Of a stretch of 10,724 bases of DNA, positions 2,691-9,795 are shown piece after piece. This DNA is from Gemmataceae bacterium. Its GTDB lineage: Bacteria > Planctomycetota > Planctomycetia > Gemmatales > Gemmataceae. The translations under genes and the position numbers were made by a program. Below the pieces are notes generated by a model. The model did no database searches. It was not told the DNA's origin and saw only the letters and a program-made list of their open reading frames with translations. Where the stretch lies: positions 1 through 10,724 of the forward strand of contig DASZFN010000971.1 in assembly GCA_035939715.1 (NCBI GenBank), read 5' to 3'. Position 1 is the stretch's first letter. Each line of letters opens with the position of its first letter.

Positions 2691-3284
2691 TTAGGCTTCG
2701 GCGACCTCAACGGTTCCGGGGCTGACCACCCCGAGCACAACGACGTCGGCGCCGGTGGGCAGCTCCCGTTGCGCAGTCACCGCTTGATATTCCATGAGCC
2801 GATTTTGCACCTTGACGTGCACCTTGCCCGCGCCGCCTCTTTGGCCGGGGATGGTCAGGTACACCTTGGCCGGGGCGCCGACCGCCCGTTCGATACGGAC
2901 GGAGCCGTCACTTTGCAGCTTGGCCAGGGTTTGCATGACCCAGGCGACCGTCACCATGGCTGCGCCGCCCGCGGCGACGGCGATCGCCAGGGGCAGCAAG
3001 GGTCCCTGCGTGACGCGCGCCGAAGCGGCCACACCGGCCAGGCCGAAGAACAAGAGCGCGGCGACAATGGTGCGAAAGGTCAGCAGCTTGAAAAACCACG
3101 AGCCTTCTTCGTGATGCCCAGGTTGGTGATGAAAGTGGCCGGTCTCGTGCTGCGTGTCGCCGGCGTCATCGGCGTGATCGCCGCCGAGATCGTGATGCCC
3201 GCCCAGGCCGATGAGTGCCAATACGAACTGGCAAAGCATCAAGGTTCCGCCCAGGATCGCACAGATCAGGTAGACGGTTTCCAT
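2691..3284 (-). CDS. NfeD-like / YqiJ-type membrane protein (flotillin partner) with His-rich loop and C-terminal OB-like beta domain
   Basis: 197 aa. It has an N-terminal TM helix, a His/Asp-rich loop, two further hydrophobic helices, and a C-terminal soluble segment (GAPAKVYLTIPGQRGGAGKVHVKVQNRLMEYQAVT...) typical of the NfeD C-terminal OB-fold. It sits 51 nt upstream of the flotillin gene on the same strand, the canonical nfeD-flotillin arrangement. A purine-rich AAGGGG lies 7 nt upstream of the ATG. Confidence 0.75.
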   Translation of the reverse strand: METVYLICAILGGTLMLCQFVLALIGLGGHHDLGGDHADDAGDTQHETGHFHHQPGHHEEGSWFFKLLTFRTIVAALLFFGLAGVAASARVTQGPLLPLAIAVAAGGAAMVTVAWVMQTLAKLQSDGSVRIERAVGAPAKVYLTIPGQRGGAGKVHVKVQNRLMEYQAVTAQRELPTGADVVVLGVVSPGTVEVAEA

Positions 3285-3703: not shown

Positions 3704-6700
3704 ATGCTACAAGGTCGTTTCTCACCCGTGACTCGCGGCAGCCTGGCGATGACCATGCTGGCTGTTGCGGCCGTGGTTTCTCTGAGCCGGCCGGGTAATC
3801 AAGGCGAAGCAGCTTCCGAGAAGCCGGCAGCGGAGTTTGCTATGAAGGGTCATGAGACCTCTGTGGACGTCGGCCAGGAATTCTTTGCCGGCACCTCCGC
3901 GTCCATTCGTTGCGCCGTCCGCGCCGTCAAATCCATCAGCGAAACCGTGCCGCTGCCCGATTCCGAAGTCAATGTGCAACTGCGTGCGAAGGATGGACAG
4001 GCCTTCCCACTGGCGGCCGGGAAGACCGATGCCGGTGGCAATCTGGACGCAACCTTCCGGGTGCCCGAAGTGCCGGCCGGGCAGTACACCTTGGCGGTCG
4101 CCACCCGCTCAACGCTTGGCCAACAAAAGTTGGAACGCACCGTGCAGGTGAAGACCGGCGCGAAGATTCTGCTGGTCACCGATAAGCCGCTCTACCAACC
4201 GGGGCAGATCATGCACATTCGGGCTCTGTCCCTGCGGCCGTTCGACTTGAAGCCGGTGGCCGGCTCGGAGCTGACCTTTGAAGTCGAGGATTCCAAAGGC
4301 AACAAGGTCTACAAACGGACACAAAAGACGTCCGACTTCGGCGTCACCTCGATCGACTTCCAGCTTGCCGATGAAGTCAACATGGGCGATTACCACATCC
4401 GCGCCCTGGTCGGAGATCATCAGACGGACAAAACCGTCACCGTCAAGAAGTATGTGTTGCCCAAGTTCAAGTCGGAACTGTCCGTGGACAAGCGGTTTTA
4501 CATGCCCAAGGAAATCATTCACGCCGATTTGCAGACGGACTATTTCTTCGGCAAACCGGTGGCCAACGGCAAGATAAAGGTGGTTGCCAGCACTTTCGAT
4601 ATCCAGTTCCGCGAGTTTCAAACCTGGGAGGGCCAGACCGATGCGAACGGGCATACCAAGTTTGAAATCAAACTGCCGGATTATTTCGTCGGCCAACCGC
4701 TGCAGAAGGGGGACGCCCTGGTGCGCCTGGAGGCAAAGGTGACGGACACGGCCGATCACATGGAAACCATCAGCAAATCGTACACGGTCAGCGATCAGCC
4801 GATTCGCGTGAGCCTGATTCCCGAGGGCGGCAGGCTGGTGCCCGGCATGGAGAACCGCATCTATGCGGCGGCAATTTACCCGGACGGCAGTCCGGCCGCC
4901 TGCGAGGTCAATCTCTGGATCGGCAGCCAGGCCAAGGATGAGCCGTTTGCTACCGTCAAGACCAACGAAGCCGGGTTGGCGGAGTTCAAGCTGACGCCCA
5001 AGGCGGAGCAGTTGCGGCAAGGTCCGTGGGAACAGAAACCGCTGGAAATGCTGGGCGGCCAGGCCGCCAACGCCTGGGGGCCCAAAATGCTTTTCGATGT
5101 TTTCGTCCAGGTCCGCGACGGCAAGGGCAGCAGCGCTCGCGCGCACGCCGAGATCAACAGCGATCCTCTGGGCGAGAATATCGTCCTGCGGCTCGACAAG
5201 GCGATCTATCGCGCCGGAGACACGCTTAACATGGAAACGCGTTCCTCCGCGGGCTTGCCGACGGTTTATTACGATGTCGTCAAGAATGGCCAGGTGCTCC
5301 TCACGAAATGGCTGGATTTCAAGGACGGCGCCGGACATTACCAGCTCGACCTGCCGGCGGACCTCTTCGGCACGCTGGAAGTGCACGCTTACCAGATGCT
5401 CAGCACCGGCGAGATCATTCGCGATAGCCGCGTGATCTATGTGCAGCCGCGCGACGATCTCAAGATTGCCATCAAGCCGGACAAGGAAGTCCATGTGCCG
5501 GGCGAGAGCGGGCGGATTCATTTCCAGGTGACCGACGCGGAAGGCAAGCCGGCCGCGGCGGCGCTGGGCGTGCTGATCGTGGACGAGGCAGTCTATGCCT
5601 TGCAGGAGATGCAGCCCGGCCTCGAGAAGGTTTACTTCACGCTGCAAGAGGAATTGCTCAAGCCGAAGACAGAGGTCATCTTCAAGCCGCGCGCTTCGAT
5701 CGACACACTGGTGCGCGAGTCTGAGATTCCCGCGGACAAGCAGCAGATCGCCCAGGTGCTGTTGACCTCGGTCAAGCCGAAGCTGCCGAGCCGCTGGCAG
5801 GTGGCGCCGGAGATCGAACGCCGGCAAAAGGTCGAGGAGCAGGTGCAGCAAATCGGCTTCGCCCTGTATAGCTTTGCCGCCAATCAGAATCAGCCAGTGC
5901 TCCGCTACGATGCAGCCGCCAGGCGCTGGGACTTTGACCCGAAGCTGCTGGGGACGGTCCTGAAAGCCCAATATGTGGATGCGGCCGCTCTCAAGAACCC
6001 GCTCGGCGGCCTGTGGACGTTGCAGGACCTGGCCAAACTCGAAAAGGAATTCACCCCCAATCATTTGGCGCGGGCAGTAACGCAAGCGCGGATGCAGCAA
6101 GTATTCTGGACGTTCATCAACTATACGAACGCCAATAAGGGGAACTACTTTCAGAACGGCGAATGGTCCTTCCCCGAAACGGTGCTGACGGCCGCTGCCC
6201 GGAGCCAGCGCCTCGCCGGCTGGTGGCTGAAGGACGCCTGGGGAAAGACGATCAAGCTGGCCAAGCGTGACAAGAAGTCCGAGCACCAGACGGGCTGCAC
6301 GCAACTTGATTACTACGACTTCGTCTCGGCCGGGCCGGATGGAGAGTTCGGCACTGCCGACGATGTGAAACTGCCACCCATGAATGAGTGGCAAAATGCC
6401 ACCTTTTGGTGGAGCAGCGCGGCGCGGCACGGCCAACAGCAAAATTGGCGTAGGCGAGACCTGGCCGGCCGGTGGGGCGGCGGCCCCCGCTTTCGAGGAG
6501 CGGCCTTAGGAGGCATGGGCGGAGGCATGGGTGGCATGAATGCCCCGGGCGCCGCAGCGCCGATGCCCATGGCCGCCTTGCGCATGGAAGTAATGGACAG
6601 AGTTGCGAAGAACGGCGGCGCGGCGAAGCCTGACACCGCTGGCGGCGCCCCACCAGCGACTCGAATTCGCGAGTTCTTCCCTGAGACCATGCTCTGGCAA

Positions 6701-7327
6701 CCCGCCCTCATTACCGATGATCAAGGCAACGCCGAGCTGCCCGTCAGCTTTGCCGACTCCATCACGACGTGGCGGTTGACCGCTTCCGCCTCTTCGCGAT
6801 CTGGGCTGCTGGGCGGCGTGACTGCTCCCCTGCGAGTCTTCCAGGACTTCTTCGTCGATCTCGATCTACCCGTCACGCTGACGCAGAACGATGAAGTCGC
6901 CTTTCCGGTGGCGGTTTACAACTATCTGAAGACTCCGCAAACCGTGAAGCTGGAACTGCAGCGCGAGTCGTGGTTCGACTTGACCGATTCCGCCGACTAC
7001 ACGCGCTCCCTCGAACTTCAGCTCAATGAAGTGACGGCGGTCAAGTTCCGTATCAAGGCCCGGCGCATCGGCGCCCAGCCGCTCCTCGTGAAAGCCTCCG
7101 GCTCCAAGATGTCCGATGCCATCAAGCGGACCATCGAAGTCGTGCCCGACGGCAGCCGCGTGGAAAAGGTCGTGACCGACCGCCTGACGGGAAAGGTCAT
7201 GCAGGTGATCGAAATTCCGGAAGGCGCCATTGCGGACGCCTCCAAGATTCTCGTGAAGCTCTATCCCGGCGTCTTCAGCCAGGTCATGGAAGGGATGGAA
7301 GGCATGCTGCACATGCCGTTTGGCTGA
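3704..7327 (+). CDS. Alpha-2-macroglobulin family protein, N-terminal segment (signal peptide, MG domains, long bait-position insert, A2M domain), ending at the in-frame TGA on the thioester Cys position
   Basis: 1207-aa ORF. It has an N-terminal hydrophobic signal-like segment (MTMLAVAAVVSLSRPG) and repeated beta-rich MG-type modules (e.g. ILLVTDKPLYQPGQIMHIRAL). LIVDEAVYALQE and FFPETMLWQPALITDDQGNAELPVSFADSITTWR are hallmark A2M/C3 family motifs. It ends ...GMLHMPFG-TGA. Confidence 0.9.
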   Translation: MLQGRFSPVTRGSLAMTMLAVAAVVSLSRPGNQGEAASEKPAAEFAMKGHETSVDVGQEFFAGTSASIRCAVRAVKSISETVPLPDSEVNVQLRAKDGQAFPLAAGKTDAGGNLDATFRVPEVPAGQYTLAVATRSTLGQQKLERTVQVKTGAKILLVTDKPLYQPGQIMHIRALSLRPFDLKPVAGSELTFEVEDSKGNKVYKRTQKTSDFGVTSIDFQLADEVNMGDYHIRALVGDHQTDKTVTVKKYVLPKFKSELSVDKRFYMPKEIIHADLQTDYFFGKPVANGKIKVVASTFDIQFREFQTWEGQTDANGHTKFEIKLPDYFVGQPLQKGDALVRLEAKVTDTADHMETISKSYTVSDQPIRVSLIPEGGRLVPGMENRIYAAAIYPDGSPAACEVNLWIGSQAKDEPFATVKTNEAGLAEFKLTPKAEQLRQGPWEQKPLEMLGGQAANAWGPKMLFDVFVQVRDGKGSSARAHAEINSDPLGENIVLRLDKAIYRAGDTLNMETRSSAGLPTVYYDVVKNGQVLLTKWLDFKDGAGHYQLDLPADLFGTLEVHAYQMLSTGEIIRDSRVIYVQPRDDLKIAIKPDKEVHVPGESGRIHFQVTDAEGKPAAAALGVLIVDEAVYALQEMQPGLEKVYFTLQEELLKPKTEVIFKPRASIDTLVRESEIPADKQQIAQVLLTSVKPKLPSRWQVAPEIERRQKVEEQVQQIGFALYSFAANQNQPVLRYDAAARRWDFDPKLLGTVLKAQYVDAAALKNPLGGLWTLQDLAKLEKEFTPNHLARAVTQARMQQVFWTFINYTNANKGNYFQNGEWSFPETVLTAAARSQRLAGWWLKDAWGKTIKLAKRDKKSEHQTGCTQLDYYDFVSAGPDGEFGTADDVKLPPMNEWQNATFWWSSAARHGQQQNWRRRDLAGRWGGGPRFRGAALGGMGGGMGGMNAPGAAAPMPMAALRMEVMDRVAKNGGAAKPDTAGGAPPATRIREFFPETMLWQPALITDDQGNAELPVSFADSITTWRLTASASSRSGLLGGVTAPLRVFQDFFVDLDLPVTLTQNDEVAFPVAVYNYLKTPQTVKLELQRESWFDLTDSADYTRSLELQLNEVTAVKFRIKARRIGAQPLLVKASGSKMSDAIKRTIEVVPDGSRVEKVVTDRLTGKVMQVIEIPEGAIADASKILVKLYPGVFSQVMEGMEGMLHMPFG

Positions 7328-8782
7328 ATGGAGCAGACGTCATCCGCGGCCTACCCGAACATCCTGGCCGTGGATTACCTCAAGAAGGCCCGTGTGGCCT
7401 CTCCTCAGATCCTCATGACCGCGGAGAATTACCTGAACGTCGGCTACCAGAAGCTCCTCACGTTTGAACGGCCAGGCGGCGGCTTTGACTGGTGGGGCAG
7501 CGGCCCGCCCATCGTCTGGCTCAGCGCCTACGGCTTGCAAGAATTCAACGACATGGCCAAGGTCTATCCCATCGACCGCGGCGTCATCGACCGCACCCAG
7601 CAATGGCTCATGAAGCAGCGCGAAGCGGACGGCGCCTGGTCCAACATCGGCGCCACGCACAGCGAAACGATCGCCCAGATGGGCAATCCCAAGCTGCTGC
7701 TGACCAGCTACGTGGTCTGGTCCCTGGTTGATAGCGGCATGCGCATTCCCGAGCTGGAGAAATCGATTAACTATATCCGCAAGCACGTGGACGAGGCGGG
7801 CGACAATGCCTACATCCTCGCGCTGGCTGCCAACGCGCTGGCTGCGTGGGATGCCAAGGACGACAGCACCCTCGTGGTCCTGCAAAAACTGGACAAACTC
7901 AAGGCCGCGAAGCCCGAATGGAAAGCGCTCAGCTTCCCGACGCGAGGCCAATCGCTCAGCTATGCGCACGGCGACAGCCTCACGGTGGAGACCACCGCCC
8001 TGGCCGCCCTGGCCATGTTGAAAACGGACCAGTTCACGAACAGCGTCAACGAAGCGCTGACGTTCCTGGTGAAAAGCAAGCAGTCGAACGGCACCTGGGG
8101 AAGCACGTCGGCGACGATTCTATCGCTCAAGGCCCTGGTCGCCGGCATGAGCGGCACGAAACAGGAAGGCAAGGCCGAGTTTGTTATCAAGGTGAACGGC
8201 AAGGAGGCAGGCAAAGGCGAAGTCACCGAGCAAAACGCCGACGTCCTGCAGGCGTTCGACCTCAAGGAATTCACCCAGCCCGGCCACAACGAAGTCCAGA
8301 TCGATGTGAACGGCAAGACCAACCTTATGTACCAGATCGTCGGCCGGCACTTCGAGCCCTGGAAGCTGCAGCCCGGCATTGCCGGTCAGAAGCCGCCGCT
8401 TGAGGTGACCGTCGATTATGACCGCACCAGTCTCTCGACGGCGGACCTGTTGCGCGCCAAGGCAACCTTACGCTACCATGGCGATCGGCCGACCTACATG
8501 GTGATCGTCGATCTCGGCATCGCTCCCGGTTTCACGGTGGACGCCGGCGATTTCGCGGAAATGGTGAGCCAGAAAAAAATCCAGAAGTTCAGCGTCACGG
8601 CCCGCCAGGTGACCCTCTACCTCGGCGACATCAAGCCGGGCGATGTGAAGACGTTTGAGTACAGCCTGAAGCCGAAATACCCGATCAAGGCCAAGACACC
8701 GGCGACCGTGGCATATGAGTATTACACGCCGGCCAACCAGGCGACGGCTCAACCAGTCGAGTTGGTGGTTGGCGACAGATGA
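3704..8782 (+). CDS. Proposed single alpha-2-macroglobulin gene (1692 codons including one internal UGA): candidate selenoprotein, or else a nonsense-interrupted pseudogene
   Basis: 3704 and 7328 are both congruent to 2 mod 3, so a single TGA (7325-7327) separates the two ORFs. The joined length (1207+1+484) is close to known full-length bacterial A2Ms (E. coli YfhM, recalled as about 1650 aa). The domain order is complete only when the two are joined. Confidence 0.6.
6461..6670 (+). other. Gly/Met/Ala/Pro-rich low-complexity bait-like segment of the A2M
   Basis: GRWGGGPRFRGAALGGMGGGMGGMNAPGAAAPMPMAALRMEVMDRVAKNGGAAKPDTAGGAPPATR lies immediately N-terminal to FFPETMLW, the position of the bait region in characterised A2Ms. 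It contains the tandem DNA repeat ggaggcatgggc/ggaggcatgggt/ggcatg at 6509-6538. Confidence 0.55.
7325..7327 (+). other. In-frame UGA at the thioester-cysteine position of the G-C-x-E-Q motif (candidate Sec codon / nonsense codon)
   Basis: The translation reads PFG-[TGA]-MEQTSS. The family consensus is G-C-x-E-Q (human A2M GCGEQ, E. coli YfhM CLEQ). The Gln partner is retained. Confidence 0.5.
7328..8782 (+). CDS. Alpha-2-macroglobulin family protein, C-terminal segment (thioester domain from x-E-Q onward plus C-terminal beta domain); probably not an independent gene
   Basis: 484-aa ORF in the same frame as 3704..7327, starting MEQTSSAAYPNILAVDYL (continuation of the CxEQ motif). An alpha/alpha-toroid-like TED region follows (GGFDWWGS..., DGAWSN..., NGTWGSTSATILSLKAL), then a C-terminal beta-sandwich region. 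There is no SD within 5-12 nt of the ATG and no signal peptide. True stop is TGA at 8780-8782. Confidence 0.85.
   Translation: MEQTSSAAYPNILAVDYLKKARVASPQILMTAENYLNVGYQKLLTFERPGGGFDWWGSGPPIVWLSAYGLQEFNDMAKVYPIDRGVIDRTQQWLMKQREADGAWSNIGATHSETIAQMGNPKLLLTSYVVWSLVDSGMRIPELEKSINYIRKHVDEAGDNAYILALAANALAAWDAKDDSTLVVLQKLDKLKAAKPEWKALSFPTRGQSLSYAHGDSLTVETTALAALAMLKTDQFTNSVNEALTFLVKSKQSNGTWGSTSATILSLKALVAGMSGTKQEGKAEFVIKVNGKEAGKGEVTEQNADVLQAFDLKEFTQPGHNEVQIDVNGKTNLMYQIVGRHFEPWKLQPGIAGQKPPLEVTVDYDRTSLSTADLLRAKATLRYHGDRPTYMVIVDLGIAPGFTVDAGDFAEMVSQKKIQKFSVTARQVTLYLGDIKPGDVKTFEYSLKPKYPIKAKTPATVAYEYYTPANQATAQPVELVVGDR
7339..7378 (+). other. mRNA hairpin downstream of the UGA (candidate bacterial SECIS-like element)
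   Basis: 7342-7351 (AUCCGCGGCC) pairs with 7366-7375 (GGCCGUGGAU), giving 10 bp (9 Watson-Crick plus 1 G-U) and a 14-nt loop at 7352-7365. Two further pairs (7339-7340 with 7377-7378) follow a 1x1 mismatch. The structure starts 11 nt after the UGA. Confidence 0.4.
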
Positions 8783-8799: not shown

Positions 8800-9207
8800 T
8801 TAATACTCGAAGGTTCTGAGGGATCGCTGTTTGTCAAACTGGACGACAAAGGCATCGAAGAACCCGTCACGGCCTAACAACAGCGGGGCATCGCCTTCGG
8901 CGAAACAAATTGGAAGAAGAATTTCTTTGCGTGCCTCGGCAACAAAAACTGTAACCTCGTGTAGCCTCGCGAGGACGACGCATTCGTCTCGTTGGGAAAC
9001 GCCTCGGATTTCAGTGTGAATTCCTGCATTCCACGTGAGCCCCAGAAGTTCGCACAGTTTCCGAGGGCCGACACTGGTATCCGCGCCAGAGTCTACGACA
9101 AACAACCTACGGGTTCTTCTGCCCTTCGTTCTCTGAAACGACACATAAAGAACCGGGGTGAGAACACCGTTCTCTTCCAGCAATGCCCATGGTTTCGTGA
9201 ACTTCAT
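8800..9207 (-). CDS. Retropepsin-like (clan AA) single-domain aspartic protease
   Basis: 135 aa. It has the catalytic D-S-G-A signature in hydrophobic context (LFVVDSGADTSV) and the C-terminal LLLGRDGFFDAFVVQFD motif typical of prokaryotic retropepsin-like proteases. Its start codon overlaps the stop of the upstream gene (ATGA, 9204-9207). Confidence 0.8.
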   Translation of the reverse strand: MKFTKPWALLEENGVLTPVLYVSFQRTKGRRTRRLFVVDSGADTSVGPRKLCELLGLTWNAGIHTEIRGVSQRDECVVLARLHEVTVFVAEARKEILLPICFAEGDAPLLLGRDGFFDAFVVQFDKQRSLRTFEY

Positions 9208-9482
9208 CGGTAGACAATTCGTCCAGGTCTTTCTAAACGCGCCACCACAATTCTATCCTGATCAATGTCGCCCAGGTTTTTGTAGAGGTCCTCCATCGTA
9301 TCCCCGAAGGCAACAATCTGGCAGTCCTTTGCAGCGATCCACTTACCCCGATACTGGCGCAGAATGTCGGATGGCAGGTGGGTAAGCCAGTCAGCAGTGG
9401 AATCGGTCGCGCGGATGATCTCTTCTTCCTCCGGGGTCGGATGCCAATCCTTGATGATCGCCTTGGTAGTCTTTCTAATCAT
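9204..9482 (-). CDS. Small protein resembling DUF5678-type partners of retropepsin-like proteases
   Basis: I trimmed the 124-aa track ORF to the Met at 9480-9482 (MIRKTTKAIIKDW...), which has GGGAGG 6 nt upstream. The longer form would overlap the upstream DUF433 gene by 65 nt. The C-terminal half (YRGKWIAAKDCQIVAFGDTMEDLYKNLGDIDQDRIVVARL) matches the Y-x-GKW-[VI]-A...V-A-x-G-D pattern I recall for DUF5678. The family assignment is from memory, not from a search. Confidence 0.6.
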   Translation of the reverse strand: MIRKTTKAIIKDWHPTPEEEEIIRATDSTADWLTHLPSDILRQYRGKWIAAKDCQIVAFGDTMEDLYKNLGDIDQDRIVVARLERPGRIVYR

Positions 9483-9513
9483 GGGTTGCCTCCCGCGCCG
9501 CGAGTTTATCAAC

Positions 9514-9795
9514 CTATTCGTCATCCTCTTCATTCGCGCGAATTGCCTGTTCGATTTCCCGCGAGTTATGCCGAGCATACTCCCGCGCTGCTGCCAGGTC
9601 TGCCCGCGTTAGCGAGGGGTAGTTGTCAAGTATCTGTTGCTCCGTCAACCCCTTTCCCTTTAGGGAATTCAGCAACCATACCATGATTCGCGTGTTTCGG
9701 ATACACGCGTCGCCACCGCAGACTCCGGCTGTCTTCCGAATCAGCGGCTCTCCGGCCGCGTCTACCGCTACTGCTTTTGACTCTAAAGCGCTCAT
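9514..9795 (-). CDS. DUF433 domain protein
   Basis: 93 aa. GVCGGDACIRNTRIMVWLLNSLKGKGLTEQQILDNYPSLTRADLAAAREYARHN is a good match to the DUF433 pattern (GxCGGxPxIxxTRIxV...YPxLxxxDIxAAxxY). A GAGGA SD lies 7 nt upstream of the ATG. It has an acidic C-terminal tail (EEDDE). Confidence 0.85.
   Translation of the reverse strand: MSALESKAVAVDAAGEPLIRKTAGVCGGDACIRNTRIMVWLLNSLKGKGLTEQQILDNYPSLTRADLAAAREYARHNSREIEQAIRANEEDDE

Follow-up and report, generated by a model that had tools for sequence, protein, structure and literature searches.

In the fdhF message of E. coli, the SelB-binding part of the selenocysteine insertion sequence (SECIS) is a 17-nucleotide (nt) hairpin that lies 11 nt from the UGA and has G23 and U24 in its loop (PMC8659212). 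More generally, a small apical loop containing G defines the bacterial SECIS elements (PMC1088965). Read directly, the fdhF sequence runs UGA, 11 nt, GGUUGCA-GGUC-UGCACC. In E. coli, the upper stem also has a bulged U, U17, a feature that other bacteria may not share. Here, we describe a candidate element of this kind in a 10,724-nt stretch of DNA from a Gemmataceae bacterium (contig DASZFN010000971.1), referred to below as the window. In it, a gene of the alpha-2-macroglobulin (A2M) family carries an in-frame UGA at 7325-7327 (+), and two hairpins, H1 (7336-7381, +) and H2 (7386-7400, +), follow within the coding sequence. Both hairpins are under RNA-level selection only where the codon is UGA. 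It is likely that H1 forms the proximal half of a two-hairpin signal of the bacterial type, which would insert selenocysteine (Sec) at this UGA in place of the A2M-type thioester Cys. The whole appears to be a SECIS with an unusual two-part architecture, serving a seemingly undescribed selenoprotein family.

The macroglobulin gene has 1,692 codons and is interrupted by the UGA at the Cys of its thioester (CxEQ) motif. The N-terminal part (3704-7324, +, 1,207 codons) was delimited from the list of open reading frames (ORFs), the translation and Pfam; the UGA stands at its end, and Pfam finds the MG2, MG3, bait-region and A2M domains in it. The C-terminal part (7328-8782, +, 484 codons) continues in the same frame with the thioester domain (TED), matched from profile position 31, and then the receptor-binding domain. 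The sole separator between the ORFs at 3704-7327 and 7328-8782 is thus the TGA at 7325-7327, and the domain order expected of the family (MG domains, bait region, A2M, TED, receptor-binding domain) runs across it. NCBIfam contained no relevant family for either gene half. A search of solved structures aligned MPFG-[UGA]-MEQTSSAAYPNILAVDYL with CD109 (8s3o), with the UGA opposite the Cys of its CGEQ motif; the other matches were A2M, A2ML1, TEP1 and complement C3, and the E-values, CD109 included, were 1e-31 to 1e-42. Because this search aligns it with the thioester motif of CD109, the UGA corresponds by alignment to the thioester-forming Cys, the one that makes the internal bond with the Gln two residues on. 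The Glu and Gln of the motif are present in the window and the Cys codon is UGA (G-U-M-E-Q), a putative Sec codon according to the codon alignment of homologues.

The window gene shares its domain order, and the G-x-x-E-Q motif at the same position, with A2M, CD109, complement C3 and insect TEP1. It differs from them in having UGA as the codon of the reactive Cys and in a stretch of ~350 residues, free of Pfam matches, between the bait-region and A2M domains. Within this stretch lies a low-complexity segment rich in Gly, Met, Ala and Pro (GGMGGGMGGMNAPGAAAPMPMAAL...; window 6467-6661, +; residues 922-986 of the macroglobulin ORF), which may be the real protease bait. A chance Rfam match to mir-667 (6500-6576, minus strand) overlaps the segment.

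DNA was gathered for 159 related loci from species-representative genomes and metagenomes. At the homologous thioester codon, 161 sites could be read, and they carried TGA (66), TGC (66) or TGT (29), which gives 95 Cys codons, and no other codon; the peptide and the reading frame are conserved on both sides, and the two gene halves are intact. Among the best 120 protein clusters, 88 are proteins of 477-497 amino acids that start exactly at MEQ[T/A]SS and, therefore, represent genes split by annotation at the TGA. The remaining 32 read G-C-[F/M]-E-Q. The TGA form occurs in Gemmataceae and other Planctomycetota, in Chloroflexota (Anaerolineae), in one Haliangium metagenome-assembled genome (MAG; Myxococcota) and in one deltaproteobacterial MAG, and it accounts for about a third of the species-level genome loci (26 of 79). 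The median in-frame ORF of the UGA forms extends 1,192 codons upstream and 481 downstream, compared to 1,236 and 483 in the Cys forms. A Fitch count on a neighbor-joining tree, which includes partial sequences, gave 14 Sec/Cys changes; this is taken as a sign of multiple switches and nothing more. The organism behind the window is known from metagenome contigs only. Its C-terminal ORF is identical on six of these, the four shown coming from four samples, and the public annotation of the gene on those contigs is always two genes.

Two side observations were made on these loci. Some Planctomycetota contigs contain two UGA-type macroglobulin genes ~5-10 kb apart, each with its own hairpins (L035, at 9998 and 19707; L109 and L110, at 3998 and 8805). 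Locus L098 has a second in-frame TGA at position 207, 830 codons upstream of the thioester site (IPA*G, where the window reads IPEGG and has Gly); this TGA probably reflects a mutation or a sequencing error in the contig.

H1 has a core in which AUCCGCGGCC (7342-7351) pairs with GGCCGUGGAU (7366-7375) in 10 bp, including one G-U, around the 14-nt loop UACCCGAACAUCCU (7352-7365). Past a mismatch, the stem is extended by pairing of 7339-7340 with 7377-7378, and RNAfold adds 7336-7337 with 7380-7381. The hairpin is both the minimum-energy and the centroid structure in RNAfold. Its lower pairs begin 8-11 nt after the UGA and its core 14 nt after, with the loop at U+27. This stem-loop had been proposed as a bacterial SECIS in an earlier note on this DNA; the core, the 14-nt loop and the two-pair extension described there match the sequence exactly, and the spacing given (structure 11 nt after the UGA, loop at U+27) is borne out by the coordinates.

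The stability of H1 exceeds what its composition and its peptide provide. Against dinucleotide shuffles, H1 folded at -21.3 compared to -14.4 kcal/mol (z -2.2, with 7 of 200 shuffles as good), and for the segment 7320-7400 the z was -2.5; across both segments, 4-7 of 200 shuffles were as good. A stricter control consisted of 200 synonymous recodings that kept the same peptide and the gene's own codon usage. None of them was as stable as H1 (-24.3 compared to -14.4 +/- 3.0 kcal/mol, z -3.3). The 10-bp core had a pair probability of at least 0.85 in contexts of 80, 151 and 301 nt.

H1 was then compared between 62 distinct Sec (TGA) sequences and 88 Cys sequences. These contrasts count related sequences as data points, and the case leans mainly on the agreement among at least eight clades with distinct sequences, together with the matched comparison of Sec and Cys forms. 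The mean z against synonymous recodings was -1.88 for the Sec and -0.25 for the Cys sequences, with z below -2 in 33 of 62 and 3 of 88, respectively (Mann-Whitney on the z-scores, p=2e-12). When only near-identical peptides were compared (EQTSS..YPN[IV]L..DY), the minimum free energy of the H1 region was -20.3 kcal/mol in 23 Sec sequences and -10.2 kcal/mol in 27 Cys sequences (p=2e-9), and 85% of the H1 helix cells were paired in the Sec set compared to 71% in the Cys set. The matched Sec set beat all 500 shuffles on both percent paired and covariation, and the Cys set did not. RNAalifold, given no prior structure, recovered H1 and H2 from 14 diverse Sec sequences at -22.4 kcal/mol, with compensatory double changes at 10 of 15 pairs; 14 Cys sequences from the same phylum gave -0.94 kcal/mol and no helix. 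The excess stability of H1 comes from wobble and amino-acid choices. The checks proposed in the earlier note, against codon-shuffled controls, among TGA-bearing orthologs and against Cys orthologs, thus all came out on the side of a SECIS role: H1 beats its synonymous recodings, is kept with compensatory changes where the codon is TGA, and has no equally strong counterpart or consensus structure where it is Cys.

Imposing the window structure on all 62 Sec and 88 Cys sequences discriminated poorly (H1 66.8% compared to 63.2%), because registers differ among clades and the peptide gives a high pairing baseline. Clade-matched comparisons were, therefore, needed. Other clades rebuild H1 from other nucleotide sequence and even from other amino acids, pairing UCCAGGGCG with CGCCCUGGA (RA with ALD) or CUCCUUCACC with GGUGAAGGAG (FT with VKE). 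Five close UGA orthologs (L009, L086, L088, L093 and L099; alignment A4, columns 18-51) have Ser-Ser-Ser-Ala rather than Ser-Ser-Ala-Ala. In these, the 5' arm of H1 (UCCGCG, pairing with CGCGGA) has moved downstream by 3 nt, and there is also a small inner helix, so that the hairpin is kept by a register shift. A covariance model built from 14 Sec elements and run over 1.3 Mb matched only macroglobulin thioester sites, apart from one marginal hit (13.7 bits, E 2.3). Held-out close Sec sites scored 93-99 bits compared to ~36-78 bits for Gemmataceae-like Cys sites, and the model is given little weight because much of its score is coding similarity.

Synonymous variation marks the extent of the RNA element as codons +1 to +25 (7328-7402, +). 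In the Sec clade, synonymous entropy is 0.62 bits across this zone and 0.35 bits at codons +18 to +25, compared to ~1.0-1.1 bits in the flanks, and it falls to zero at Val14 and Val15, in the 3' arm of H1, and from Lys20 to Ala24, in H2. The matched Cys clade shows ~1.0-1.2 bits through codon +17 and a mean of 0.98 bits over +1 to +25. Just 5' of the UGA, at window codons -5 to -1 (7310-7324), the Arg, Pro and Gly codons have 0.59, 0.68 and 0.57 bits in the Sec clade compared to 1.73, 1.51 and 1.34 bits in the Cys clade. This reduction may reflect an influence of context on how the UGA is decoded. No partner with which codons -5 to -1 could pair was found.

H2 (A GGCC CGUGU GGCC U) lies directly 3' of H1 and starts 58 nt after the UGA in the linear sequence. 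It consists of a short GC stem and a loop with G and U, and it is probably the SelB-binding module. In 23 close Sec orthologs, no position of its columns (61-75) varies, and five of these positions are wobble sites. Other Sec clades have covarying versions at the equivalent place: CACCC-GUC-GGGUG, CAGCC-GUC-GGCUG, GACCC-GGC-GGGUC and GGCCC-GUA-GGGCC, and further AGGCC-GGUC-GGUCU, GCGGC-GGA-GCCGC, GACACC-GGA-GGUGUC and GGGGCA-GGU-UGCUCC. A G-loop hairpin was defined as having at least 5 bp, of which at least 3 are G-C, a loop of 3-5 nt, and G in the first two loop positions. Of the 62 Sec sequences, 59 have such a hairpin, as do 11 of the 88 Cys sequences (Fisher p=2e-26); the three Sec sequences outside the definition have the 4-bp version. 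The small G-loop feature sits on this second hairpin, which the earlier note did not include.

The position of the G-loop hairpin varies with the presence of H1. In 15 Sec sequences from Chloroflexota-type clades that have no H1, the G-loop hairpin begins 10-11 nt after the UGA, as GUACGUC-GGC-GACGUAC or ACGUC-GGU-GACGU. In the other 47, it lies 50-70 nt from the UGA, and the intervening RNA, the H1 region, folds in all of them into one or occasionally two stable helices. After folding, the exterior unpaired nt between the UGA and the G-loop hairpin number 13 at the median and 12 in the window. In the simplest reading, SelB would bind the G-loop hairpin in every lineage, and H1 would serve as a structured spacer, selected for pairing only, that folds away the ~45 intervening nt, placing H2 ~12 unpaired nt from the UGA and restoring the effective distance. 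By slowing the ribosome at the UGA, H1 may in addition act as a roadblock that gives SelB time against release factor 2. We infer this division of labour, with H1 as spacer and H2 as SelB site. The product would have Sec beside the conserved Glu-Gln and probably a selenoester instead of a thioester.

The window element resembles the fdhF SECIS in several respects. In both, an in-frame UGA is followed by a selected hairpin structure within the coding sequence. H2 and the near hairpins share with fdhF a small loop that starts with G and then G or U, closed by a GC-rich stem, and a myxobacterial ortholog with GCA-GGU-UGC is directly comparable to the GCA-GGUC-UGC of fdhF. The start of the hairpin 10-11 nt after the UGA in the 15 orthologs also agrees with fdhF. 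Unlike fdhF, the window and 46 other orthologs have the G-loop hairpin 50-70 nt off, with the gap filled by a separate 10-bp hairpin with a large loop. Also unlike fdhF, neither H1 nor H2 has a bulge, so there is no equivalent of U17, and the UGA is not drawn into the lower stem.

Judged on alignments and predicted folds, the window element has the evolutionary marks of a bacterial SECIS: a site that alternates between UGA and Cys, a stem-loop of excess stability, and covariation that is absent from Cys orthologs. Like described bacterial SECIS elements, it has a stable stem-loop downstream of a TGA, Cys in homologs, and a TGA conserved in several independent sequences. The small apical loop with a conserved G is lacking in H1 and present in H2. 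A comparable division of roles is found in eukaryotes, where the Sec redefinition element (SRE) of SEPN1, a hairpin a few nt 3' of the UGA, aids recoding and the factor-binding SECIS is further away. By analogy, H1 may work like the SEPN1 SRE. The SRE system is eukaryotic, with its SECIS in the 3' untranslated region and other factors, unlike the two elements of the window, which lie within 75 nt and inside the coding sequence.

Several observations weigh against a two-hairpin Sec signal. In the 301-nt folding context, H2 pairs elsewhere (H2 probability 0.06), and the estimate of the exterior distance spreads widely, from 2 to 21 nt. We know of no described bacterial SECIS with its SelB hairpin ~60 nt from the UGA; the published descriptor reportedly allows 16-37 nt to the apical loop, and H2 lies further. 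The Rfam scan of the whole window, up to E=10, returned no family at 7325-7400, the only matches being chance microRNA and small RNA hits. The peptide alone makes 63-71% of the H1 cells pairable in Cys orthologs. One Cys ortholog (L008; TGC; 1682-1761) retains most of H1 at -16.6 kcal/mol, whereas H2 is lost. This ortholog has the look of a recent change from Sec to Cys, and it resembles the remnant SECIS structures that have been described after such conversions (PMC1794560). In a few TGA loci, the upstream frame is short, probably because of frameshifts. A tRNA scan detected no tRNA in the 10.7-kb window and no tRNA-Sec in 50 related loci, and no SelB or other Sec gene could be demonstrated for this organism from the 10.7-kb window. 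Sec insertion, SelB binding and the selenoester are all predictions from sequence.

Another possible explanation is that H1 itself is the hairpin bound by SelB, as the earlier note would have it, and that H2 is auxiliary or an unrelated conserved element. The core of H1 starts 14 nt after the UGA, near the 11-nt spacing of the upper hairpin of fdhF, and no other local structure is as stable or as robust as H1, which is specific to Sec forms. Its loop, however, is 14 nt long and has no conserved G: the only G is the wobble base of a Pro codon and is replaced by C or A in several TGA orthologs, and several Sec orthologs, such as L011, L014 and L084, have no G in the loop whatever. Synonymous sites in the loop also vary freely (~1 bit at Tyr9, Pro10 and Ile12), whereas H2 is frozen, and the Sec clades without H1 still have the G-loop hairpin. 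We consider this explanation unlikely. What stands of the SECIS proposed in the earlier note is that H1 belongs to the recoding signal, by the codon controls, the covariation and the contrast with Cys forms; the SelB-hairpin determinant is lacking from it.

It is very improbable that H1 and H2 promote a SelB-independent read-through of the UGA, in which a near-cognate tRNA inserts Trp, Cys or Arg. Read-through can be promoted by stable structures directly 3' of a stop codon, and the window has no visible Sec machinery. Against it, the 15 sequences with a G-loop hairpin 10-11 nt from the UGA fit the geometry of fdhF. Selenoproteins are classically recognized by an alternation of UGA and Cys at a reactive Cys (PMC1088965). 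The lineage has Sec machinery, with selA, selB, selC and selD reported in Gemmata obscuriglobus (PMC4807772).

The UGA could also be a true stop, in a pseudogene or between two polypeptides, with re-initiation at the AUG at 7328 and the hairpins serving translational coupling. UGA and AUG are adjacent in the window and in most close relatives, and annotation pipelines call two genes. However, the internal codon is TGA in 66 of 66 cases, yet the same genes end in TAG (33), TGA (16) or TAA (13). Among homologues, the codon directly 3' of the UGA is AUG, UUC, UUU or CUG; since many clades thus have no start codon there, re-initiation is not a general explanation. In addition, the split falls exactly at the reactive Cys, both halves are conserved across phyla, and the Glu-Gln of the motif is kept although a split would destroy the thioester motif. 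The chance that the UGA is a true stop is, in our judgement, extremely small.

The notion that H1 has no RNA function and simply results from the GC-rich coding of the conserved peptide SSAAYPNILAVDY is largely refuted and given next to no chance: the pairable baseline in the same register in Cys orthologs and the modest dinucleotide-shuffle z (-2.2 to -2.5) speak for it, and against it stand the synonymous recodings, none as stable as H1, the Cys orthologs with matched peptides that fold at half the energy, the suppression of synonymous variation in the Sec clade only, and the clades that change amino acids (RA with ALD, FT with VKE) to keep the pairing.

The two-hairpin Sec signal would have consequences beyond this locus. 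We give an even chance to the wider proposal of a bacterial A2M-type group, in Planctomycetota, Chloroflexota and Myxococcota, with Sec at the thioester position, a selenoester warhead for covalent capture and a split SECIS. In most known selenoproteins, Sec serves redox chemistry (PMC4807772). Its placement at the thioester of a protease trap would point to a different, non-redox use. In the literature search, whose coverage left out most subscription journals, no report was found of selenium at a macroglobulin thioester site or of a macroglobulin selenoprotein, and no report of an internal selenoester bond in any natural protein was found. From general chemistry, selenoesters should donate acyl groups more readily than thioesters do, and this higher reactivity might speed the covalent capture of target proteases.

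The arrangement would also widen the accepted geometry of bacterial SECIS elements. A SelB hairpin ~60 nt downstream exceeds the range that the descriptor is said to cover, and SECIS search tools would, therefore, under-call selenoproteins. The lineages provide a natural series for the distance of the SelB site, with the hairpin at +10-11 nt without a spacer and at +50-70 nt with one. In every UGA form examined, the annotation shows two truncated genes, and an abundant protein class is thus systematically mis-annotated.

Other selenoprotein candidates were sought in the same lineages. A screen of 653 kb of Sec-bearing loci for genes with an in-frame TGA, requiring long open frames and high third-position GC content on both sides, returned only gene boundaries and spurious frames, and thus no independent SECIS. 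The neighbouring MsrA gene on the source contig was rejected as a second selenoprotein, as it has the Cys form (GCFWC). Upstream of the macroglobulin gene, the window encodes an SPFH/Band 7 domain protein of 570 amino acids (963-2675, -), followed by a protein of 197 amino acids that has no Pfam match (2691-3284). Downstream, on the opposite strand, lies a run of small genes (window 8800-9578, -; L160 7277-8272) that encode a 135-amino-acid protein with no Pfam match, a DUF5678 protein and a DUF433 protein. Their order is identical on all four source contigs, and the run may be a toxin-antitoxin-like module.

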